Of a stretch of DNA of 64,000 nt, positions 11,162 to 57,995 are shown one piece after another (position 1 is the stretch's first letter; every line of letters starts with the position of its first letter). Source of the stretch: a virus; IMG/VR virus record IMGVR_UViG_3300023179_000057, positions 1 to 64,000 of that record, one strand, 5' to 3'. Under the pieces are notes generated by a model. The model worked only from the letters and a program-made list of their open reading frames with translations, made no database searches and had not been told where the DNA came from. Made by a program: the position numbers and the translations under genes.

Positions 11162-13570
11162 ATGGCAACAGTAACAAAAGACTTTAGAGTAAAAGCGGGG
11201 CTGGTAGTTGAGGGATCAACTGCAACAGTAAATGGCCACGATATACTTACAGAAGCATTAGTAGACGCCAAAGGTGATTTATTAGTTGCTTCAGCAGCAG
11301 ATACCGTAACTCGTCTCGCAGCGGGCACAAACGGATATATTCTCACTGCAAATTCCTCAGCCACAAATGGAATTGAATGGGCAGCAGCACCAGCAGTTGG
11401 AACATTTGAATCAAGCATTACATTTGAAGGTTCTTCAGCAGATGATAATGAAACAACACTTCAAGTAACAAACCCAACTGCAGATAGAACAATTACACTT
11501 CCAGATGCAACTGGACAAGTTGTTCTTCGTGATACAACAGATACACTATCAAACAAATCAATTGCCCTTGGCTCAAATACAGTAACAGGAACAATTGCAG
11601 AATTTAATACCGCATTAACTGATGCAGATTTTGCAACATTATCAGGTACAGAAACTCTTGCTAATAAGACTCTTACCTCACCAACTGTTTCTGGACTTTA
11701 TTTGTCAGACTCTTCAATAGTATTTGAAGGTGCTACAAATAATGGAAATGAAACAACAATTCAGGTAACTGACCCAACATCAGATCGTACAATTACATTT
11801 CCAGATGCAACTGGAACTGTAGCATTAACTTCAGATCTAGGTTCATTTATTACTGCATCAAGTAGCGATACATTAACAAATAAAACAATAAGTGTTGATA
11901 ATAATACAGTTTCTGGTATTGCAGCATCTAGTTTTGTTTTATCAGATGCCTCTGGAAATATTGATGGATCTGCTGCTCAAAAAACAATTCCAACTGGAAC
12001 AGTAGTAGGATCATCAGATAGTCAAACATTAACAAATAAAACAATTTCTGGTTCTGATAATACACTTTCAAATATTGGAAATGGATCACTTACAAATAGT
12101 TCTGTAACAATCAATGGAAACTCTGTTTCACTTGGTTCATCAACAACACTTTATACAGACAGTATTTCTGAAGACGGATCACCAGTAAATCTTTGGTTTA
12201 CAGATGAAAGAGCACAAGATGCTGTTGGAAATGCTGTAGGAAATGGTCTTGATTATGATGATGGTACAGGAGCAATTTCTGTAGATCCAACAGAGTTTTC
12301 ATTAAACTCTATTGGTGCCCCAACTGCTAATGTTGATTTAGCAAGTTACAAAATTACAAATCTTGGAGCACCATCAGCAGACACAGATGCAGCAAATAAA
12401 GCATATGTTGATTCTGCAACTGCAGGACTTAACGTTCATGAATCTGTAGAGGCTGCCACAACAGCAAATATTACACTAGCAAGTGATCTTGAAAATGGAG
12501 ATACTCTTGATGGTGTAACACTTGCAACAGGAAATAGAGTTCTTGTTAAAAACCAAACAGATAAAAGTGAAAATGGTATTTATGTAGTTAAAGCATCAGG
12601 TGCCCCAGATCGTGCACCAGATTATAACTCTGTACCAGAAGTAGATGCAGGAGACTTTGTTTTCGTAGAAGGTGGAACTGTAAACGGAAAGACTGGCTGG
12701 GTCCAAACAAATGTTATTGCAACATTAGGATCAGATGAAATTGCGTTTACTCAGTTCTCAGGTGCTGGAACATATTTAGCAGGTAATGGTTTAACACTAA
12801 CTGGAAATTCATTTAGTATTAATACAACAATTACTGCAGATTTGTCTACTTCACAAACATTCACAAACAAATCAATTAGTGGTTCAACAAACACACTTAC
12901 AAACATTCCAAATAATGCTTTAACAAATTCAGCAATTACTATCAATGGTACATCAGTATCACTTGGTGGAAGTCGCACTCTTGGAACTGATGATGTTTCT
13001 GAAGGATCTACAAACAAGTACTTTACTGATGAACGTGCACAGGATGCTATTGGAAATGCCCTAGGAACAGGCCTTTCATATAATGATACAACTGGTGCAA
13101 TTTCTAACTCAGGTGTAACAGGTCTTACTGGAACAGCAAATCAAATATCAGTATCTGCTTCAACTGGATCAGTTACATTATCTACACCACAAGATATTAA
13201 TTCAACTGCAACACCAACATTTAGTGGAGTTAATGTAGGATCTGTAACACTTACAGATGCTTTACTTGGTACTGCTACTGGAACTGCTTCTGATTCAGCA
13301 ACAGTAATTGATACATGGTCTGCAACAACATACTCAAGTGCTAAATACATTGTTCAAATGAAAAAAGATAATGATATTGAAGTAATTGAAGTTCTTGTTG
13401 CTATAGATGGAAATAACAATGTTTACTTAACAGAATATGCAGATGTATTTAGCAACGCTGTTCTTGGAACTACCGACGCAGATTACAATGGTGGCAATGT
13501 TCGTCTAAAAATCACTGGTACTGCAGCAGGTACTTCTGTAAAGGTAAGCAAAACATATATTGAAGCATAA
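11162..13570 (+). CDS. Long fibre protein 1
   Basis: T/S/G-rich; repeated TLTNKT and PTADRTITLPDATG motifs; AKGDLLVA. Confidence 0.8.
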   Translation: MATVTKDFRVKAGLVVEGSTATVNGHDILTEALVDAKGDLLVASAADTVTRLAAGTNGYILTANSSATNGIEWAAAPAVGTFESSITFEGSSADDNETTLQVTNPTADRTITLPDATGQVVLRDTTDTLSNKSIALGSNTVTGTIAEFNTALTDADFATLSGTETLANKTLTSPTVSGLYLSDSSIVFEGATNNGNETTIQVTDPTSDRTITFPDATGTVALTSDLGSFITASSSDTLTNKTISVDNNTVSGIAASSFVLSDASGNIDGSAAQKTIPTGTVVGSSDSQTLTNKTISGSDNTLSNIGNGSLTNSSVTINGNSVSLGSSTTLYTDSISEDGSPVNLWFTDERAQDAVGNAVGNGLDYDDGTGAISVDPTEFSLNSIGAPTANVDLASYKITNLGAPSADTDAANKAYVDSATAGLNVHESVEAATTANITLASDLENGDTLDGVTLATGNRVLVKNQTDKSENGIYVVKASGAPDRAPDYNSVPEVDAGDFVFVEGGTVNGKTGWVQTNVIATLGSDEIAFTQFSGAGTYLAGNGLTLTGNSFSINTTITADLSTSQTFTNKSISGSTNTLTNIPNNALTNSAITINGTSVSLGGSRTLGTDDVSEGSTNKYFTDERAQDAIGNALGTGLSYNDTTGAISNSGVTGLTGTANQISVSASTGSVTLSTPQDINSTATPTFSGVNVGSVTLTDALLGTATGTASDSATVIDTWSATTYSSAKYIVQMKKDNDIEVIEVLVAIDGNNNVYLTEYADVFSNAVLGTTDADYNGGNVRLKITGTAAGTSVKVSKTYIEA

Positions 13571-14080: not shown

Positions 14081-16513
14081 ATGGCAACCAGAATGCAACA
14101 ACGCAGAGGTACTGCAGCACAATGGACATCAGCAAATCCAATATTAAATGCTGGTGAAATGGGTTGGGAATCAGATACAAATAAATTTAAAATTGGTGAT
14201 GGTACAAATCACTGGGCTGATCTAGACTATTTTGCTGATATTAACTCTACTATTAATCCTGCTTTTGGTACAAGCATTATTTTTGAGGGTGCTACCGCTG
14301 ACTCATATGAAACTACTCTTCAAGTAACAGATCCAACTGCTGATCGCACAATTACTCTTCCAAACGTTAGTGGTACAGTTATTACAACTGGTAATCTTTC
14401 AGATATTACAGATATTGGTGTATTTACTTCAACAATTACAATGGAAGGCTCTACAGCAGATTCTTATGAATTAACACTTTCAGCAGGAGATCCAACTGCT
14501 GACCGTACGATTACTTTTCCAGATGCTACAGGCACAGTTGCTTTAACATCTGATATAGCAGAACTTTCACAAGATGCTATTAACGATGCTTTAACTGCAG
14601 GTACTGGCATAACAAAAACTTATAATGACTCAGCAAATACATTAACTTTAGCAGTAGATACTACAACAATTCAGGCTCGTGTAGCAGATGTATCTGACAC
14701 CGAAATTGGTTATTTAAATGGTGTAACTTCAGCAATTCAAACACAGTTAGATGCTAAGTCAACAGAATCAAAAACAGAAACCCTTACAAATAAGTCAATT
14801 TCTCTTGCTAGCAATACATTAACTGGAACTACATCAGAATTTAATTCTGCTCTTTCAGACTCTAACTTTGTAACTACTGGTGATACTGGAACAGTTACAA
14901 GCACAATGATTGCAGACGGAACCATAGTTAATGGTGATATTAGCGCTTCTGCTGCTATTGATAAGACTAAGATTTCAGGAACTGCTGTTACCGCAGCAGA
15001 TACAGGCACAGTAACATCCACCATGATTGCAGATGGAACAATTGTTGATGGAGATATTAATGCATCAGCAGCAATTGCTCAATCTAAAATTTCTAATTTA
15101 ACAACAGATTTGGGAAGTAAGTTATCTCTATCTGGCGGTACAATGACAGGTGCAATTGCAATGGGTACAAGCAAGATCACTGGTCTTGGAAGCCCAACAG
15201 CAGATGCAGATGCAGCAACAAAGGCATATGTTGATGCAGCAACAGCAGGACTAAATGTTCATGCATCAGTTCAGGCTGCCACTACAGCAAATATTACATT
15301 AGCAAGTGCTGTTGAAAATGGTGACACACTTGATGGAGTAACTCTTGCAACAGGTAATCGCATTCTTGTAAAGAACCAAACAGATAAAACTGAAAACGGT
15401 GTTTACGTAGTTGCAGCATCAGGAGCACCATCTCGTGCAACAGATTATGACTCTACTCCAGAAGTAGATGCTGGCGATTTTATTTTCGTAGAGGCTGGAA
15501 CAGTAAATGGTAAAACAGGTTGGACTCAAACCAACGTTATTACAGCAATTGGATCAGACAATATTGAGTTTACTCAATTCTCTGGTGCTGGCACATATTC
15601 AGCGGGTACAGGATTAACCCTAACTGGTACAACATTTAGCATTAATACTGGAACTACAGTAGATTTAAATACTGCTCAAACACTCACAAATAAAACAGTT
15701 AATCTTACAAGTAATACACTTAGTGGTACTACGGCTCAGTTTAATACTGCATTAAGCGATGGAGATTTTGCTACCCTTGCAGGTTCAGAAACTCTAACTA
15801 ATAAAACTATTAATGGTTCAAATAATACAATTACAAATGTTTCTTTAACAAGTGGAGTTACTGGCACTCTTCCAGTTGCTAATGGTGGTACAGGAATTAC
15901 ATCACTTGGTACTGGAATAGCAACATTTTTAGGAACTCCATCATCTGCAAATCTTGCCTCTGCAATTACAGATGAAACTGGCTCTGGCGCTCTAGTATTT
16001 GCTAATACGCCTACTTTAGTAACACCAAATATTGGTGCTGCAACTGGCACATCTTTAACAACTACTGGTGGTGGAGTGCTTGCTAGAGCAGCATCTACAC
16101 AAGATGGTGTTGAAATTCGTGGTCGTGCTGGAGGTACTGGAAACTGGGAAGTAATATTAACACCAACAACTTTAACTGCAGATAGAACATTAACACTTCC
16201 AGATGCAACTGGCACAGTTTCACTTCTTGATAATACTGAAACATTATCTAATAAAACATTAGCAAGTGCAGTAGCCACAACAGCATTTACTCTTAATGCT
16301 ACAGCAGAACTTAGATTAGCAGATACAGACTCAAGTCACTATGTTGGTTTTAAGGCACCAGGAACTGTTTCAACAAACAGAATTTGGACACTTCCAAGCG
16401 CAGATGGAACAAGTGGTCAGGTGTTGTCAACAAATGGATCTGGAACACTTTCTTGGTCAACTGCTGGTGGCGGTGGAGCATCCTTTAGCGAATTAATGCT
16501 AATTGGTGCATAG
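14081..16513 (+). CDS. Long fibre protein 2 with Mtd-like N-terminal domain
   Basis: QQRRGTAAQW..ANPIL..GE.G.E.DT.KFKIGDG; shares a ~160-aa module with fibre 1; ends LMLIGA. Confidence 0.85.
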   Translation: MATRMQQRRGTAAQWTSANPILNAGEMGWESDTNKFKIGDGTNHWADLDYFADINSTINPAFGTSIIFEGATADSYETTLQVTDPTADRTITLPNVSGTVITTGNLSDITDIGVFTSTITMEGSTADSYELTLSAGDPTADRTITFPDATGTVALTSDIAELSQDAINDALTAGTGITKTYNDSANTLTLAVDTTTIQARVADVSDTEIGYLNGVTSAIQTQLDAKSTESKTETLTNKSISLASNTLTGTTSEFNSALSDSNFVTTGDTGTVTSTMIADGTIVNGDISASAAIDKTKISGTAVTAADTGTVTSTMIADGTIVDGDINASAAIAQSKISNLTTDLGSKLSLSGGTMTGAIAMGTSKITGLGSPTADADAATKAYVDAATAGLNVHASVQAATTANITLASAVENGDTLDGVTLATGNRILVKNQTDKTENGVYVVAASGAPSRATDYDSTPEVDAGDFIFVEAGTVNGKTGWTQTNVITAIGSDNIEFTQFSGAGTYSAGTGLTLTGTTFSINTGTTVDLNTAQTLTNKTVNLTSNTLSGTTAQFNTALSDGDFATLAGSETLTNKTINGSNNTITNVSLTSGVTGTLPVANGGTGITSLGTGIATFLGTPSSANLASAITDETGSGALVFANTPTLVTPNIGAATGTSLTTTGGGVLARAASTQDGVEIRGRAGGTGNWEVILTPTTLTADRTLTLPDATGTVSLLDNTETLSNKTLASAVATTAFTLNATAELRLADTDSSHYVGFKAPGTVSTNRIWTLPSADGTSGQVLSTNGSGTLSWSTAGGGGASFSELMLIGA

Positions 16514-16695
16514 TACTTAATTAAAATAAAAGTAATCATTTAATTTTTAATTAGTACTTTTAAAAAAGTAAAGCACTAACTATTAACTATATCTTTATAG
16601 TTAATAATTTACGTTTAAAAATATTTTTTTTGTTTTAAATTTTGTGCTACAATATGAGAGTGCTTGTTAAATCTTAAAGCACTTCATTTTTTTTA
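16512..16695 (+). promoter_or_regulatory. Inverted-repeat-rich leader, promoter TGCTACAAT and terminator-like hairpin upstream of nrdJ
   Basis: IRs 16512-16558 and 16581-16606; promoter 16645-16653; AGTGCTT/AAGCACT stem then T8. Confidence 0.5.
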
Positions 16696-16716: not shown

Positions 16717-18747
16717 ATGTCAGATACATTTTCTTTCCGTTTATTAGACGACTTTGTAGCAAAATATAAAGACGTTCCTGCACCATTTGGATTTTCAGAC
16801 GCAGGATCTAACTCTTTAGGAGAGATAACTTTTATAAGAACCTACTCTCGCATGAAAGAGGACGGTACAAAAGAAAGATGGTATGAAGTTTGTAAGCGTG
16901 TAATTGAGGGTATGTATTCAGTTCAAAAAAATCATGCCAAAGAAAATCGTTTGCCCTGGAATGACAATAAGGCTCAAAAGTCTGCCCAAGAGGCATTTCA
17001 AAGAATGTTTGAGTTAAAATGGACTCCACCAGGACGTGGCCTATGGGCTTTTGGAACTTCAATGACTATGGACAAACGTAACTCTGCTGCCCTGCAAAAT
17101 TGTGCAATGGTATCTACTCGTGATATTGATCGTAATGATCCAGGAGCCTTATTTGCTTGGGTAATGGATGCATTAATGTTAGGCATAGGTGTAGGGTTTG
17201 ATACTCTTGGACAAGAAAAAGAAATGTTAATTTATGCTCCAACAGAACCACCTTCAGTATATGAAATTCCTGATACTAGAGAAGGATGGGTTGAGTCTAT
17301 AAGATTATTAATAAACTCATACCTTCGTCCAAACCAACCCATACAACACTTCACATACGACCTTATTAGACCTTTAGGAGCGCCTATCAAAGGTTTTGGC
17401 GGAGTAGCCAGTGGTCCAGGACCATTAATAGATTTACATAACCGTATTACAAAAGTTGTAGGATCTAGAGCAGGAGAAAAGTTTGATTCTCGTGCAATAG
17501 TAGATATTGTTAACCTTATTGGTACCTGCGTTGTTTCTGGAAATGTTCGTCGTTCTGCTACTCTTGCTTTAGGAAATGCAGAAGACAAAGATTTTAGTAA
17601 TTTAAAAAATGCAAGTGTTTTTCCAGAACGTAACTCATATGATCCAGAAAATCCAGGATGGGCATGGATGTCTAATAACTCTATTGCTGCAGAAGTTGGA
17701 ACAAACTATGAAGATTATGTTGATTTAATTGCAGACAATGGAGAGCCAGGATTTATTTGGCTTGATGTTGCTCGTAATTATGGAAGACTTGCAGATGCAC
17801 CAGATGGAAAAGATTATCGTGTAATGGGTTTTAATCCATGTGCAGAACAACCATTAGAATCATACGAACTATGTACATTAGTAGAGGTTCACTTAAATCG
17901 TCATGAAGATAAAGAAGATTTTCTTCGTACACTAAAGTTTGCATATCTATATGGAAAGACTGTAACTTTGATGCCAACACATTGGCAAAATACAAATGGT
18001 ATTATGCAACGTAATCGTCGTATTGGAACATCTTTAACTGGTATTGCATCTTTTGCAGATACAAAAGGTATGCCAGCAGTTCGTGAATGGATGGACGAAG
18101 GATATAAAAAAATTAAAGCATACGATCATTCATACTCTGAATGGCTATGTGTACGTGAATCAATTCGTGTAACTACCGTCAAACCTTCAGGATCCGTTTC
18201 ACTACTTTCTGGTGCAACACCAGGAGTTCACTGGGGTCCAGGAGGAGCATTTTATCTACGTGCTATAAGGTTTGGAAATACAGATCCAATGCTTCATTTA
18301 TTCAAAGCAGCAGGGTATAAAGTTGAAGCAGATTTAGTTTCTGCCAACACTTCAGTAGTATATTTCCCAGTAGCATCTGGACATTCCCGTTCTGAAAAAG
18401 ATGTAAGTCTTTTTGAAAAGATTGGTTTGGCAGCAACTGCTCAAAAGTATTGGTCTGATAATGGAGTTTCTGTAACTCTATCTTTTGATAAAGAAACAGA
18501 GAAAAAACATGTTGCTCCAGCATTGCATCTTTATGAAGGTGAACTAAAGGCTGTTTCGTTTTTACCAATGGGCAATGAAACATTTCCTCAACAACCATAT
18601 AATAATATTACAAGAGAAGAATATAACTCTTATGTAGGTAAAATTGCCAAAATTGATTGGTCTGCAATTTATGATGGTGTAGAAAATCTAGAAGCACAAG
18701 GTGAAGCCTATTGCAGTACAGACGCTTGTGAGATAAAATTATACTAA
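16717..18747 (+). CDS. nrdJ: Class II adenosylcobalamin-dependent ribonucleotide reductase (monomeric RTPR type)
   Basis: PPGRGLW, LQNC, GNVRRSA, NPCAEQ, TTVKPSG, C-terminal CSTDAC. Confidence 0.93.
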   Translation: MSDTFSFRLLDDFVAKYKDVPAPFGFSDAGSNSLGEITFIRTYSRMKEDGTKERWYEVCKRVIEGMYSVQKNHAKENRLPWNDNKAQKSAQEAFQRMFELKWTPPGRGLWAFGTSMTMDKRNSAALQNCAMVSTRDIDRNDPGALFAWVMDALMLGIGVGFDTLGQEKEMLIYAPTEPPSVYEIPDTREGWVESIRLLINSYLRPNQPIQHFTYDLIRPLGAPIKGFGGVASGPGPLIDLHNRITKVVGSRAGEKFDSRAIVDIVNLIGTCVVSGNVRRSATLALGNAEDKDFSNLKNASVFPERNSYDPENPGWAWMSNNSIAAEVGTNYEDYVDLIADNGEPGFIWLDVARNYGRLADAPDGKDYRVMGFNPCAEQPLESYELCTLVEVHLNRHEDKEDFLRTLKFAYLYGKTVTLMPTHWQNTNGIMQRNRRIGTSLTGIASFADTKGMPAVREWMDEGYKKIKAYDHSYSEWLCVRESIRVTTVKPSGSVSLLSGATPGVHWGPGGAFYLRAIRFGNTDPMLHLFKAAGYKVEADLVSANTSVVYFPVASGHSRSEKDVSLFEKIGLAATAQKYWSDNGVSVTLSFDKETEKKHVAPALHLYEGELKAVSFLPMGNETFPQQPYNNITREEYNSYVGKIAKIDWSAIYDGVENLEAQGEAYCSTDACEIKLY

Positions 18748-18757
18748 GGGGGAATAA

Positions 18758-19210
18758 ATGAAAAGAACATTAATATCATTAGCAATTATTGTGTTAGCCT
18801 TTGTTGGATTGCAAGGCATAAATAAAACAGATAGCAGTTGTATAAATTTATATGTTGATTATGGCTCATTAGAAAATAAAACAAAATTAACTAAATGCAT
18901 AGAATCATCTAATAAAATTATTGCTTTAGATGTTTTAAGAAAAGCAAATTTAGAAATAGAGGGTACCAAGAAGTATGGCTTAGGAGTTGTTTGTAGAGTA
19001 AATGGTTTGCCAAATTCAAAAGTAGAGTCTTGTGAAGAAATGCCACCTGCAAATGCCTATTGGGCAATAATTGTAAAAGAAAAACAAGTTATTCCGTTTC
19101 CTAGAAAAGAATGGGGATGGGGACAACTTGCAATAGATCAACAATATTTAAACCCAGGAGATTCAATCGGTCTAGTCTGGGCTGACAATGGAAAGGTTGT
19201 GTTTCCATGA
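18758..19210 (+). CDS. Membrane-anchored/secreted transcobalamin-like (DUF4430-like) protein, putative cobalamin binder
   Basis: N-terminal hydrophobic helix; VDYG...ALDVL...EGT..YG..VCRVNGLP...C..PP..AYWA...W...PGD. Confidence 0.6.
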   Translation: MKRTLISLAIIVLAFVGLQGINKTDSSCINLYVDYGSLENKTKLTKCIESSNKIIALDVLRKANLEIEGTKKYGLGVVCRVNGLPNSKVESCEEMPPANAYWAIIVKEKQVIPFPRKEWGWGQLAIDQQYLNPGDSIGLVWADNGKVVFP

Positions 19211-19371
19211 AATTAAAACATAAAGTTTTAGATAATGTTATTTTTCTTCCACAAGAAAAAAAGAAATCAAACACTTTTCAAAACATTATTCAATTAGTAA
19301 CTATGCTTGTATTTTTAAATATAGCAAATAAAATAACTGTTGATATTTGGCGTTCTTTGACAGGGCACTAA
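19207..19371 (+). CDS. 54-aa small membrane protein (not in ORF track)
   Basis: ATGA overlap upstream and TAATG overlap downstream; hydrophobic IIQLVTMLVFLNIA. Confidence 0.6.
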   Translation: MKLKHKVLDNVIFLPQEKKKSNTFQNIIQLVTMLVFLNIANKITVDIWRSLTGH

Positions 19372-19865
19372 TGGTTCATTTAACTCGCATATACACAAAA
19401 ACTGGAGATGATGGAAAAACCTCTACTGCTACAAATGAAAGAATAGACAAAAGCAGTTCTTTAATTGAGGCAATTGGCGCAGTAGATGAGGCCAACTCTG
19501 CAATCGGAATGGCCACGGAATATCATAATGACATCATAGATAGAATCCAAAGCGATCTATTTGATCTTGGTGCAGAGTTATCTGGTGCCCCAACAATAAC
19601 AATATCAGAAGATAGAATTGTTTATCTAGAAAACATAATTGATGATTACAATGAATACTTAGAGCCACTTCACTCTTTTGTTTTGCCTACAGGTCCTCTT
19701 CATAATGCAAGGACTATTGTGAGAAGAGCAGAACGAGAGGTCTGGAAGGTAGAAGGCATAAATATAAACATTGCAAAATATTTAAATAGGCTATCAGATT
19801 TACTTTTCGTAATGGCAAGGTATCATAACAAGGGTAATGAAAAGTTGTGGATTCCTAGAAATTAA
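19371..19865 (+). CDS. pduO: PduO-type ATP:cob(I)alamin adenosyltransferase
   Basis: IYTKTGDDG.T, G.VDEANS.IG, Q..LFDLGAEL, FVLP, RTIVRRAER, YLNRLSDLLFV.AR. Confidence 0.93.
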   Translation: MVHLTRIYTKTGDDGKTSTATNERIDKSSSLIEAIGAVDEANSAIGMATEYHNDIIDRIQSDLFDLGAELSGAPTITISEDRIVYLENIIDDYNEYLEPLHSFVLPTGPLHNARTIVRRAEREVWKVEGININIAKYLNRLSDLLFVMARYHNKGNEKLWIPRN

Positions 19866-19900: not shown

Positions 19901-22900
19901 ATGTCTAACCCATCAAATTTATATGCAGAAAAAATATATTCTGAGCACCCGCTAGTTTTATGGGCATTAGATGACAAACTAGATTATCTTAGCCTTATTT
20001 CTGAATCAGAACGTCAAATATATGATTCTTGGACTGTAAATGATGCAACAGCAACTTTAGAATCTAGTTCACTTGATGAGCCATTTCCTGACAGTGCAAT
20101 GACGTTAGTTGAGGTAGATGTCCCAATATCAGAAAATCTTGAGTCTTCATTTATAAGTCCAAACCTACTTAATTTTAATGAATTAGCAGAACTTGGAAGT
20201 TTTACTGTTGGATCTTATTTTTATTCTAATAGTGTTTTTTTACAAAGTGTTTCTATAGGATATGAATATACAGATCCAAGTACATCAGCAGTTATTCAAA
20301 ATTTAAAAACTTTTACAACTACACTTTATCAAAGATGGGGTTTTATTTCTGAGACATTTGAAATACCAAATGTTTCTGCACAACTTAGAATTGTTATTAA
20401 GGTTAAAGTTTTTGAAGGATCTGCAGGCCCAGAAGACAATCAATTTTATTTTAATGGCATTACTCTTGGCCAATGGAATGAAGAATTTAATACATATTCT
20501 TTAAATGGAACTACTACAACAACTATTCCTTCTTCAGTTAGTGTTTATGGTGGATCAACTGCAGTAGAAGCACAAGCATACGGAATTGCCGAAGATTCTG
20601 GATATTATCTTGCAGATAGTCGTTTAATTTGTCAAAATATTGGAATTCCATTAGTTTATGGAGCAAGTGGTGTAACAAGAATACAGCCAACAGGAGGTGC
20701 ATCTTTAATAATTCCAGGCAAAGGATTTTTAAATAAAAAGGGACAATATAACGAATATACCGTTGAATTTTGGATGAGAGTTTTGGCAAATACTTCTATA
20801 CCATTTAAAATATTTGGACCTATTGCGTCAGATGATGGATTATATGTTGAAGATGGATTTTTAACTTTAGTTATTGGAGATCAGTTTGCTTCACATTTTA
20901 TTGGTGAATGGTTTAGACCAATGCTTATTCATATTCGTATTATTAGAAATTTAGCATCATTATTGGTTAATGGAGAAGAGGTTTTATCTTTATCTCTAGA
21001 TACAGATAATTTAAATTTACCAGATGAACTTGATAATGTTGGAGATAGTCAAGACTGGTTAGGTTTTTATGCAAGCACAGATGTATATCCTTTTGAAATT
21101 GATTGTGTTGCAATTTATTCTTATCAAGTTCCAATTACCGTGGCAAAACGTAGATGGGTTTATGGACAAGGAGTTATATCACCAGAAGGAATTAACTCTG
21201 CATACGGAGGAACAACCGCTTTTATAGATTATCCATTTGCTAATTACACAGCAAATTATAATTATCCAGATTTTGCTGGATGGGATCAAGGTACTTTTGA
21301 TAACTTAACAACAACTCAAACAACTTTAAGAACTCCAACATACTCATTACCTGAAATATTTATAGGAACAAAAACATTACAAGAACTATATAGTGATAAT
21401 CAAGATATTCAAGATAATGAGTCTGGCCCAGTTATTTCTGATAAATTTTTATCATTTAGACCAAATAACACTTGGAACGCTATAGACTCCTATATAAATT
21501 TTGATAGATTTAATCCACTAGCAAATGAGGCAAACAGTTTCTACGGTGTTTTTAGTTCACATAACTTATCTTCTGAAGAAATATTATTTAAAATATATAA
21601 TCCTTTAAATACTAATAATTATTTTTTAATAACAAAAGACGCAGATGAAATTAAATACTCTTTGTCTTATAATGATGAAATAGAGTTATTATTTACATCA
21701 GATCCTATTAGTGCTAATCAACTTTTTGCGGTAGGAATAAACATTGAAACACTTTCTAACGGCAATAGCAATGTAAATGCATTTTTTGGAAATCAAAGTT
21801 CATTAAAGATGTATGTGGCTGGAGACGATTCTGGAGAGTATGCGTTTACAGGCAGGATTTATTCTATTGGAATATCTACAGTTTTAAATTCTAATAAGAT
21901 TTCTGATAACTTTGATGAAAATGGATTTATTGTTTTAGAAGATGGACAAACACTGATTGATCATACTGCCAGTTATACTCTTTTGCCATCAGAAGCATAT
22001 CAAAAATATTTCTTAGATATTGGAGTTTCTGGGTATTGGCAAGACTATTTACCTCTTTCTTATTTTGGTCAATTTGTAGAAAATAGCAATGGTCAAAAGT
22101 TTTATGATTTAGACTTTATTCAATTTAACTTAGGATATCCAACCACTACTACGTTGGTTGAAGAGTCTGGTGCCACTGGATATTATTATGATACAACTGG
22201 AGCACAAATAAAAAGTTATGCTACTTTTCAATATGTTGAAGATGGGGCAAACATTCCAACTTCTTTTGCTAATGAGCAAAAACTAAATGAATATAAAATT
22301 CTTGATATGGCAAATTATGAAGACTGGGAAACAACAAGATTTGAAATTTTAAATAATACATTAATTTATCCTATAAAGACTGAAGACTTTAATACTCTTG
22401 CAATTGTATATAGTCTTGAGTTTGATAGTCGTGGTATTTTAACAAAACCAATATTATTAAATAGGTTACAGTTTGCCTCTCAAGCATTAAACGATAACTC
22501 TTCTAATCCAGTAGGTACCAGGTTTGGAGTAGACCTTATACCTTATAAAAAGAACGGTATTTATTATAACTATAAGTCTAAAAATCCATTTAGTATATAT
22601 AAAGAAAGTATGCCATATTTATATTTAACAAAAACTTCTGGAATTGAGGTTCGTGGAGAATTAAATATTCTTGAAAATCGTGGGCTATCTCTTCCTATTA
22701 ATAAAGAGTTAGCAACAAATTATAAAGTTAGCGCTATGCAATTATGGATGAATTACAATAAAGAAGAATTTCCAACAACGGCTACTGAGATTTTTGAAAT
22801 TAATCATAAAGACGGAACTCTTAAATTTTACCTACAGGCTAATAGTACAGACTTAAACAGGGGTAGGGTATTTGTTTTAAATGAAAATGGAGTTCCATAT

Positions 22901-23365
22901 AATGGAGTTGCATTTTATTTAAATGGTAGTTTAGTTAGAGAGCCAGTTTTATCATTAAAAGACTGGTCTGCAATAGGAATTTCATTTTTAACTTCCCTTG
23001 TTTTTAGTTCATATCTTGGAAATATAAATCTTACAGGCCCAGCCCTGTTTAATAATATTGCTTATTACCAGGCAAGTAGCATACAAGAAATTCAAAGTAC
23101 TACCTTAAATCCATGGTTTAAGGTATTAACAGACGGAACTACTGTTTTTGATTGGCAATATTGGTTGAATAACTATACTTGGGAAGGAATGTTAGTCCTT
23201 GGATCATCAGAATTTTATAATATTAATCCATCTGACATTTACAAAACATATATAGGAACAAATAAAATTATTGTTGATGATGAAGAGGGTTTAATATACC
23301 AGGCTGAAAAAATGAAGGTATATAAAGACGTAGAATGGTCAACCACTGTATCAACACCAGTATAG
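19901..23365 (+). CDS. Large virion protein with LamG/concanavalin-like domains
   Basis: P.VLWALDD, YTVEFW, LLVNGE, IDCVAIY; 1154 aa. Confidence 0.65.
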   Translation: MSNPSNLYAEKIYSEHPLVLWALDDKLDYLSLISESERQIYDSWTVNDATATLESSSLDEPFPDSAMTLVEVDVPISENLESSFISPNLLNFNELAELGSFTVGSYFYSNSVFLQSVSIGYEYTDPSTSAVIQNLKTFTTTLYQRWGFISETFEIPNVSAQLRIVIKVKVFEGSAGPEDNQFYFNGITLGQWNEEFNTYSLNGTTTTTIPSSVSVYGGSTAVEAQAYGIAEDSGYYLADSRLICQNIGIPLVYGASGVTRIQPTGGASLIIPGKGFLNKKGQYNEYTVEFWMRVLANTSIPFKIFGPIASDDGLYVEDGFLTLVIGDQFASHFIGEWFRPMLIHIRIIRNLASLLVNGEEVLSLSLDTDNLNLPDELDNVGDSQDWLGFYASTDVYPFEIDCVAIYSYQVPITVAKRRWVYGQGVISPEGINSAYGGTTAFIDYPFANYTANYNYPDFAGWDQGTFDNLTTTQTTLRTPTYSLPEIFIGTKTLQELYSDNQDIQDNESGPVISDKFLSFRPNNTWNAIDSYINFDRFNPLANEANSFYGVFSSHNLSSEEILFKIYNPLNTNNYFLITKDADEIKYSLSYNDEIELLFTSDPISANQLFAVGINIETLSNGNSNVNAFFGNQSSLKMYVAGDDSGEYAFTGRIYSIGISTVLNSNKISDNFDENGFIVLEDGQTLIDHTASYTLLPSEAYQKYFLDIGVSGYWQDYLPLSYFGQFVENSNGQKFYDLDFIQFNLGYPTTTTLVEESGATGYYYDTTGAQIKSYATFQYVEDGANIPTSFANEQKLNEYKILDMANYEDWETTRFEILNNTLIYPIKTEDFNTLAIVYSLEFDSRGILTKPILLNRLQFASQALNDNSSNPVGTRFGVDLIPYKKNGIYYNYKSKNPFSIYKESMPYLYLTKTSGIEVRGELNILENRGLSLPINKELATNYKVSAMQLWMNYNKEEFPTTATEIFEINHKDGTLKFYLQANSTDLNRGRVFVLNENGVPYNGVAFYLNGSLVREPVLSLKDWSAIGISFLTSLVFSSYLGNINLTGPALFNNIAYYQASSIQEIQSTTLNPWFKVLTDGTTVFDWQYWLNNYTWEGMLVLGSSEFYNINPSDIYKTYIGTNKIIVDDEEGLIYQAEKMKVYKDVEWSTTVSTPV

Positions 23366-57134: not shown

Positions 57135-57995
57135 ATGACTAAAAACTTGCTAGAACAGATTATGGTTAAAAAAATTAACCAAAGTAAGAGTATTAATCAA
57201 GGAGATGAATCATTCGTTGATGGTTTGGCAGATGCAATTAATTCTGGATACCTTGCAAAAACAAAGCCAAAGTTTACAAAGAAAAATAATTTTTCTGCAT
57301 CTGGATTAACTTATGGTGCTGGAGAATGTCCAAGGTATTGGCATTTAGCATTTGATGGACAAATACATTATGATAATGCAGATGCTTGGGGTGTGGCAAA
57401 TAGAACACAGGGAACACAGGGTCATGAAAGAATTCAAGAAGCAATACAGGCTTCTGGATTACTTGATGAAGAAATGGAAATGGATCCACTTCCAAGAAAA
57501 TATAATAAACAAACTCATCCAGCAATGGAGTTTAGAGTTAAAGTTGATGATCCACCATTTGATGGTTATGGCGATGTAATGCTTAAATACAAAGGTGAAA
57601 GACTTATCGGTGAAATTAAAACAATGCCAAATGATGGATTTCAATATAAAAAAATTAGCAGACGTCCTAAGATGGCACACCTAATGCAATTATTAATGTA
57701 TATGAAGGTTTGGAAAATTCGTAAAGGCGTAATTATTTATGAAAATAAAAATAGTCATGAATTACTTACTTTGCCTGTAGTGGTAAATGATCATTATCGT
57801 AATTGGGTTGATCAAGCCTTTGATTGGATGAGAGAAGTTTATAAAACTTGGCAAAATAAAGAATTAGCACAAAAACCATACCGCTCTAATTCAAAAATTT
57901 GCAAGGTTTGTCCTATTCAAAAAGCATGTGCTGAAGCAGAGGTTGGAACAATAAAAATCAAACCTTTGGAATTATTAAAGGATGATATGGATTAA
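57135..57995 (+). CDS. Cas4-like/RecB-family exonuclease with 4-Cys cluster
   Basis: CPRYW, GT..HE, D...EIKT, Q...Y, CKVCP...C. Confidence 0.8.
   Translation: MTKNLLEQIMVKKINQSKSINQGDESFVDGLADAINSGYLAKTKPKFTKKNNFSASGLTYGAGECPRYWHLAFDGQIHYDNADAWGVANRTQGTQGHERIQEAIQASGLLDEEMEMDPLPRKYNKQTHPAMEFRVKVDDPPFDGYGDVMLKYKGERLIGEIKTMPNDGFQYKKISRRPKMAHLMQLLMYMKVWKIRKGVIIYENKNSHELLTLPVVVNDHYRNWVDQAFDWMREVYKTWQNKELAQKPYRSNSKICKVCPIQKACAEAEVGTIKIKPLELLKDDMD

Follow-up and report, generated by a model that had tools for sequence, protein, structure and literature searches.

We analyzed four co-oriented genes, nrdJ, p150, p54, and pduO, in a 64,000-nucleotide stretch of viral DNA (the window) that constitutes the first 64 kb of a 91.6-kb viral contig in IMG/VR (record IMGVR_UViG_3300023179_000057; CheckV completeness, 84%). 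An initial annotation of the window had described these genes as a tightly linked, self-contained module, located between virion genes, with which a phage would bind vitamin B12 at the cell surface, activate it, and supply it to its own ribonucleotide reductase. All four open reading frames (ORFs) are open at the coordinates listed here, in a region with a G+C content of 31 to 38%.

16645..16653, + strand: possible extended -10 promoter element TGCTACAAT, read from the sequence, with no -35 hexamer
16717..18747, + strand: nrdJ, monomeric class II ribonucleoside-triphosphate reductase (RTPR), 676 aa, assigned from TIGR02505, Pfam, and PHROG 367
18758..19210, + strand: p150, exported protein with a predicted transcobalamin-beta-domain/DUF4430 fold and putative corrinoid binder, 150 aa, assigned from predicted structure
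19207..19371, + strand: p54, conserved peptide and probable single-pass membrane peptide, 54 aa, assigned from conservation and hydropathy
19371..19865, + strand: pduO, PduO-type ATP:cob(I)alamin adenosyltransferase in a shortened form, 164 aa, assigned from PF01923 and TIGR00636

Genes and junctions of the cassette

The junctions between the four genes were read directly from the DNA. The nrdJ stop codon (TAA, 18745 to 18747) is followed by a 10-nt, Shine-Dalgarno-like gap, GGGGGAATAA, and then by the p150 ATG at 18758; the end of p150 and the beginning of p54 share an ATGA overlap (19207 to 19210), and the end of p54 and the beginning of pduO share a TAATG overlap (19369 to 19373). For pduO, the program-made ORF list uses a TTG at 19347, and we prefer the ATG at 19371 because it fits the TAATG overlap and a Pfam match that begins at model position 1. 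A scan for promoters and terminators revealed no internal terminator-like hairpin in the four-gene block. An AT-rich spacer of 203 nt containing TGCTACAAT lies 5' of nrdJ, and TGCTATAAT stands 5' of the gene following pduO. The same consensus scan found no more sites than in shuffled sequence and did not list TGCTACAAT, which is without a -35. The tight linkage initially described is thus upheld by the gap and overlaps as well as by the recurrence of the gene order in related viral loci, and the block is one translationally coupled operon.

Both enzymes, encoded by the first and last genes of the operon, were assigned with full-length family models. The nrdJ product scored 355.9 bits against the NCBIfam equivalog model for RTPR, TIGR02505 (cutoff, 340.05), over its full length and matched Pfam RNR_Alpha and RNR-II_ins_dom and PHROG 367 (2.4e-142). 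Its nearest solved relative is Lactobacillus leichmannii RTPR (1L1L; E = 9e-97), with the active-site motif FNPCAEQ aligning with NPCGE and the C-terminal cysteine pair CSTDAC aligning with CEGGAC. By these matches, nrdJ encodes a monomeric class II, adenosylcobalamin-dependent reductase. PduO matched Pfam PF01923 (1e-46; 159.5 bits, cutoff 24) across model positions 1 to 170 of 171 and TIGR00636 at 150 bits (cutoff, 108.45), and its motifs align with those of its nearest solved relative, the Mycobacterium tuberculosis enzyme (2G2D/6WGS; E = 1e-33). The motifs TKTGDDGxT (TKTGDDGKT in the window), RRAER, and LNRLSD are intact and invariant among seven phage forms, so that by family and motifs the gene encodes an intact PduO-type adenosyltransferase. 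Compared with the canonical-length form that a sister phage lineage encodes (L024:4418-4972), the window protein is shortened by four deletions of 5 to 7 residues, which spare the motifs.

p54 is a real gene. Essentially all close cassettes carry it, as either a 54-aa or a 44-aa form, and it falls into 153 protein clusters, whose members are all 44 to 54 aa long and all come from metagenomic contigs no longer than 115 kb. The peptide combines a variable N terminus, a moderately hydrophobic central helix, and a near-invariant C-terminal DIWRSLTGH (WRS..GH). Its best 19-residue hydropathy ranges from 1.2 to 1.9 (median, 1.54), borderline values for a helix that spans a membrane, and basic residues lie N-terminal of the helix. 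From these sequence features, p54 is probably a single-pass membrane peptide. Searches with Pfam, PHROGs, and NCBIfam gave nothing usable, no p54 homologue was found at bacterial loci, and p54 is absent from permuted phage cassettes.

Predicted fold and cellular relatives of p150

p150 has a hydrophobic N-terminal leader or anchor (residues 4 to 22; Kyte-Doolittle score, 2.04) and no lipobox. Four cysteines (C28, C47, C79, and C92) are invariant or nearly so across its phage and bacterial relatives, as expected of an exported, disulfide-bonded domain. Y101, W102, W119, and W121 are invariant as well. Sequence models identified no family for p150: all Pfam, PHROG, and NCBIfam models were silent, even at E = 10. 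The Pfam DUF4430 model (PF14478) found no match at E values up to 10 in p150, in 21 family members, or in a six-frame search of the genome, and the NCBIfam SCO2322 model (NF040672; cutoff, 85 bits) did not match p150 and gave its relatives only 17 to 45 bits. No relative of p150 turned up when 50,697 deposited phage genomes were searched with tblastn, and sequence searches of the PDB with two profiles returned chance-level matches only.

Structure prediction gave a clear result. A first AlphaFold run on a shallow alignment of 62- to 82%-identical relatives reached a predicted local distance difference test (pLDDT) score of 55.7 and was not used. An exhaustive profile search then collected 272 p150 relatives, and an 80-sequence alignment yielded a final AlphaFold2 model with a pLDDT of 88.6 and a core above 95. 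With this model, Foldseek ranked the DUF4430 structure 3U7Z first (E = 2.6e-4), followed by transcobalamin, the isolated beta domain, haptocorrin, and intrinsic factor. VIA-align superposed the model on transcobalamin-beta/DUF4430 structures with Z scores of 10.0 to 10.8 over about 95 aa at about 3.0 Å (for 3U7Z, Z = 10.2 over 95 to 96 aa; root mean square deviation, 3.0 Å). In a separate comparison with 48,161 representative solved chains, made independently of Foldseek, Z scores of at least 8 were obtained only for transcobalamin, the isolated beta domain, haptocorrin, intrinsic factor, and 3U7Z, and the next fold was a Wza-type domain at 7.1. An hhalign comparison of p150 with a four-sequence profile of bona fide actinobacterial DUF4430 domains gave an intermediate probability of 72.5% (E = 3.2e-5), with the AYW and GD..F.W motifs in register.

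These findings support a predicted transcobalamin-beta/DUF4430-like fold for p150, as the initial annotation had anticipated for 18758 to 19210, with cobalamin-binding beta domains and DUF4430 as the sole strong matches. The model makes p150 a putative corrinoid binder. By the Pfam model p150 is not a recognizable DUF4430 member; it is a distant relative, nearest to lipoproteins of the SCO2322 type that accompany energy-coupling factor (ECF) transporters. p150 consists of the beta domain only and does not have the layout of the transcobalamin family, in which an alpha (alpha/alpha-toroid) domain and a beta domain together enclose cobalamin.

As distant relatives of p150, the profile search (E values down to 1e-20) recovered actinobacterial lipoproteins that carry an LxGC lipobox. 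In some of them, an alpha/alpha-toroid (SCO2321-like) domain is fused to the lipoprotein or lies next to it, which recreates the alpha-plus-beta layout of transcobalamin; matches to the SCO2321 and SCO2322 NCBIfam models were below cutoff. We compared 80 bacterial loci from Aurantimicrobium, Aquiluna, Pontimonas, Cryobacterium, Agromyces, Microbacterium, Nocardioides, and other genera. In about 75 of them, the p150 homologue lies directly 5' of an ECF-type T+A+A' fusion and a five-helix membrane protein that is probably the S component. Just beyond the ECF operon, 56 of the 80 loci carry a convergent gene for full-length, B12-dependent MetH (for example, L087:10679-14278, - strand), and metH is a neighbor in nearly every Microbacteriaceae locus with sufficient flank. 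This conserved ECF and metH neighborhood may mark an uncharacterized actinobacterial B12 importer. A 7-kb locus in a 7.1-Mb actinomycete genome (L254; G184:C1:3649000-3663000) encodes a p150-like protein of 347 aa, EcfT (CbiQ), an ECF S component, and a true DUF4430 protein, and by its gene content two paralogous beta-domain proteins appear to serve one transporter there. None of the bacterial p150-homologue loci contains nrdJ, p54, or pduO.

In the small genomes of Aurantimicrobium minutum and Aquiluna, MetH is present and no PduO-type adenosyltransferase was found, which suggests that a phage could benefit from bringing its own adenosyltransferase into such hosts. Neither genome contains a cobalamin riboswitch. 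A class II-like reductase of A. minutum falls just below the NrdJ_Z cutoff (384.4 versus 399.95 bits).

Linkage of the cassette genes among phages

We compared the window with 80 related viral loci, which belong mostly to one phage group, so that their synteny counts one history repeatedly. The order nrdJ-p150-p54-pduO is kept in nearly all of them, with identities to the window of 55 to 87% for p150, 40 to 63% for p54, and 48 to 99% for PduO, and because the same order recurs so widely, the four-gene arrangement is not due to chance. It is also found in a lineage with a different downstream context, in which PduO is about 50% and the reductase about 62% identical to those of the window. Two loci keep the cassette with a class II reductase of only 27% identity, and a second lineage has the cassette at a distance from virion genes.

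The linkage is not absolute. Three of the 80 loci are missing pduO. At four loci, pduO stands among genes for DNA polymerase III alpha, RecA, and RuvC, and neither nrdJ nor p150 lies within 5 kb of it; the adenosyltransferase gene has thus moved between modules in close relatives. The PduO encoded at L234:5001-5498 (also L230, L235, and L236) is 82 to 89% identical to that of the window and lies beside DNA polymerase III alpha, RecA, a PD-(D/E)XK nuclease, and RuvC, with no p54 within 5 kb. In a locus search based on PduO, the best 80 loci were nearly all from the same phage group and offered only these four alternative contexts. Among divergent loci, six are ordered nrdJ-pduO-p150, three contain pduO-p150, and five contain p150-p54-pduO without an adjacent nrdJ (two of the five without detectable p54).

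At the level of whole records, PduO was found in eight of the nine p150-bearing contigs longer than 25 kb, at distances of up to about 19 kb from p150. RTPR-sized, reductase-like ORFs occur far from the cassette in three long contigs, a weak observation since Pfam PF02867 is insensitive for RTPR-type reductases (the window's own nrdJ scores 25 bits). These results indicate that p150 follows PduO more faithfully than it follows the reductase and that adjacency to nrdJ is a feature of the window's lineage rather than a rule. Linkage to nrdJ is not obligatory, as p150, pduO, or both stand apart from nrdJ or from each other in divergent phages. Together, the ECF and metH context of the cellular relatives and the co-occurrence with PduO at the genome level independently support, from comparative sequence data, a link of p150 to corrinoids.

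The genomic setting of the cassette agrees in outline with the initial placement between virion genes. Upstream, the ORF at 14081-16513 matches tail-fiber and decoration PHROGs; downstream, genes for the portal, protease, and major head protein follow, separated from the cassette by an ORF of 1,154 aa that has no PHROG match. This ORF (19901-23365) adjoins the cassette in most related loci with an identity of 40 to 79%, and its place before the portal gene suggests that it could encode a virion or host-recognition protein that evolves rapidly. Two proteins of about 800 aa, encoded at 11162-13570 and 14081-16513, both match head-decoration and tail-fiber PHROGs 2647, 27782, and 30390 and look like paralogous fiber or decoration proteins.

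Host and proposed function in B12 capture, activation, and use

The same contig carries a WhiB gene at 77054-77227, outside the window, that scores 44.2 bits, above the Pfam cutoff. Genes of this family are characteristic of actinobacteria and of the phages that infect them, and the host is therefore probably an actinobacterium on this sequence match, the sole host clue found. A weak second WhiB match lies in the window at 57873-57938. A search for the host in a 401-genome sample of the actinobacterial class gave distant matches only (best, 75.8 bits). Near-identical sequence was found in lake, freshwater, and pond metagenomes of 13 studies. An identical contig of 769 nt in a freshwater metatranscriptome covers the end of nrdJ, p150, p54, and the start of pduO; it is compatible with one transcript, a weak hint given possible DNA carry-over. 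Contig joints at 18692>19885, 19210>19342, and 19161>19343 are probably divergent relatives failing the 90% likeness filter and not deletions. Members of the Nanopelagicales import rather than synthesize B12 (PMC12817590).

We consider it reasonably probable that this operon allows the phage to capture, activate, and use B12 as the cofactor of its own reductase. The enzyme assignments and the fold of p150 frame this route, within which we infer what p150 binds, that it passes this ligand to a transporter, and what p54 does. p150 would be exported to reside on, or be released from, the outer face of the membrane of a single-membrane actinobacterial host, where its beta-like domain may bind complete corrinoids from very dilute lake water and hand them to a host importer, most likely of the ECF type encoded with the cellular homologues. 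p54, the least certain part of the route, might be a membrane accessory of capture, for example by tethering or docking p150 at the transporter. PduO, with the activity expected of its family, would adenosylate the imported cobalamin with ATP to form adenosylcobalamin, and the RTPR with this cofactor would reduce nucleoside triphosphates directly to provide the deoxynucleoside triphosphates from which phage DNA is made. The host is probably unable to synthesize B12 and may have no enzyme of the PduO type, so that the phage reductase could be limited by capture as well as by activation.

Several observations weigh against this proposal. A shared fold, here from a predicted model, does not prove a shared ligand, and the DUF4430 and SCO2322 sequence models both miss p150. 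Contrary to the initial description of the module as self-contained, no ECF T, A, or S gene was found in the 84%-complete phage genome, which encodes no transporter; a host importer is therefore needed. Among divergent viral loci, 17, mostly small fragments, have p150 with neither nrdJ nor pduO adjacent (within 5 kb). Five partial contigs that carry p150 and PduO, several of them 57 to 67% complete, yielded no RTPR, and a missing RTPR or PduO in viral contigs that are 6 to 67% complete is not readable as a real absence. On the cellular side, metH is convergent rather than co-operonic with the ECF genes and the neighborhood comes mostly from one family, the Microbacteriaceae, so that it may partly reflect inherited synteny. 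Finally, no cobalamin riboswitch (Rfam) was present in ten bacterial loci and five whole genomes holding p150 homologues.

Some of these observations would suit a different ligand. p150, with p54, may capture another ECF substrate, most plausibly heme or another tetrapyrrole, as a general micronutrient module only loosely linked to nrdJ and pduO. The missing riboswitches and the separation of p150 from nrdJ and pduO in some phages fit this idea. It conflicts with the lack of any heme-related gene beside p150 in the phage, with the translational coupling of p150 between two B12 enzymes and its persistence with PduO across rearrangements and at the genome level, and with the adjacency of the cellular ECF operon to metH, which encodes a B12 enzyme. 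In solved transcobalamin complexes, moreover, the beta domain touches cobalamin on its nucleotide side, and heme has no nucleotide. An argument for heme, and a further point against corrinoid capture, is that an ECF operon of Latilactobacillus sakei with split transcobalamin-like alpha and beta proteins has been tied experimentally to heme uptake (bioRxiv 10.1101/864751); abundant freshwater acI actinobacteria are also heme auxotrophs (bioRxiv 10.1101/2021.01.11.426183). Weighing both sides, we regard a heme-type substrate as unlikely.

The surface location predicted for p150 could also be read without any role in nutrition of the phage. As a mimic of the ECF-associated lipoprotein of the host, p150 with p54 might mask or replace a phage receptor and thereby exclude superinfection, or they might sequester B12 from neighboring cells. 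Phage receptors are often nutrient-uptake proteins, and some phage lipoproteins block them, as T5 Llp does with FhuA; p150 is exported, homologous to a host surface lipoprotein, and encoded beside tail-fiber genes in the window genome. That proximity is lost in the second lineage, the consistent partner of p150 is PduO and not the fiber genes, and exclusion leaves the translational coupling with nrdJ and pduO unexplained, which makes a device of this kind distinctly improbable in our estimation. We are equally doubtful that the adjacency is inherited gene order alone, with p150 and p54 as envelope proteins of unrelated function that happen to lie between two B12 genes. The predominance of one phage group among the 80 close loci, with its single history counted many times, and the loss of p54 from permuted cassettes would be explained in this way; the trio is nonetheless kept with a 27%-identical reductase and in another genomic context, further lineages permute the order and retain the set, and the fold and cellular context point independently to cobalamin. 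None of these explanations accounts for the persistent partnership of p150 and PduO as well as capture, activation, and use of B12 do.

A more specific form of B12 capture, which we think improbable, is that p54 and p150 constitute a minimal viral add-on that reprograms a host ECF transporter. p150 would again capture the corrinoid, and the DIWRSLTGH tail of p54, predicted to face outward, would dock it on the S or the T component of the host transporter or, alternatively, supply a histidine to cap the cobalt. In transcobalamin, a histidine of the alpha domain caps the cobalt. If the add-on exists, infected cells would be stronger B12 sinks than uninfected cells, and viral lysis would redistribute lake B12.

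In plankton, viruses that encode a B12-dependent RTPR are widespread. The idea that RTPR viruses might enhance B12 uptake during infection was raised, without evidence, by Wu et al. (2023; PMC10547690), and the cassette, in which a putative extracellular binder is linked to the activation and use of the cofactor, offers a concrete candidate set of genes for such enhancement. No published description of such a cassette was found in the literature searched, and as far as that literature shows, p150 would be the first phage-encoded vitamin-capture protein if it binds corrinoids. In that case, viral control of lake B12 flow could be tested with one small soluble protein, and the uncharacterized SCO2322-type ECF systems of actinobacteria would gain a first functional handle.

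Among known systems, BtuG and BtuH of Bacteroides (PMC8941943, PMC13616437) resemble the proposed route by function only, in passing extracellularly captured cobamides to a membrane transporter; they belong to a diderm, TonB-dependent outer-membrane system and are cellular rather than viral. Lsa1836-1840 of L. sakei (bioRxiv 10.1101/864751) includes a secreted, beta-domain-like protein that works with an ECF importer annotated for cobalamin transport. It differs in belonging to a Firmicute, in its experimental link to heme, and in having an alpha partner and a whole transporter. With the beta domains of transcobalamin, intrinsic factor, and haptocorrin (2BB6, 5NO0/5NP4, 2PMV, and 4KKI) and with 3U7Z, p150 is predicted to share the whole-domain fold and an extracellular location. 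Its identity to these structures is only 13 to 20%, the phage has no alpha/alpha-toroid partner, and p150 has an extra loop at about residues 84 to 99, flanked by C79 and C92. The SCO2322-type lipoproteins share with p150 profile-level homology, the cysteine pattern, the CRVNG.P and AYW motifs, and export, and in the Microbacteriaceae their beta domain stands alone, without an alpha domain, as in p150. Relative to these lipoproteins, p150 lacks the lipobox and the adjacent transporter genes, falls below the NCBIfam cutoff, and is encoded instead with nrdJ, p54, and pduO.

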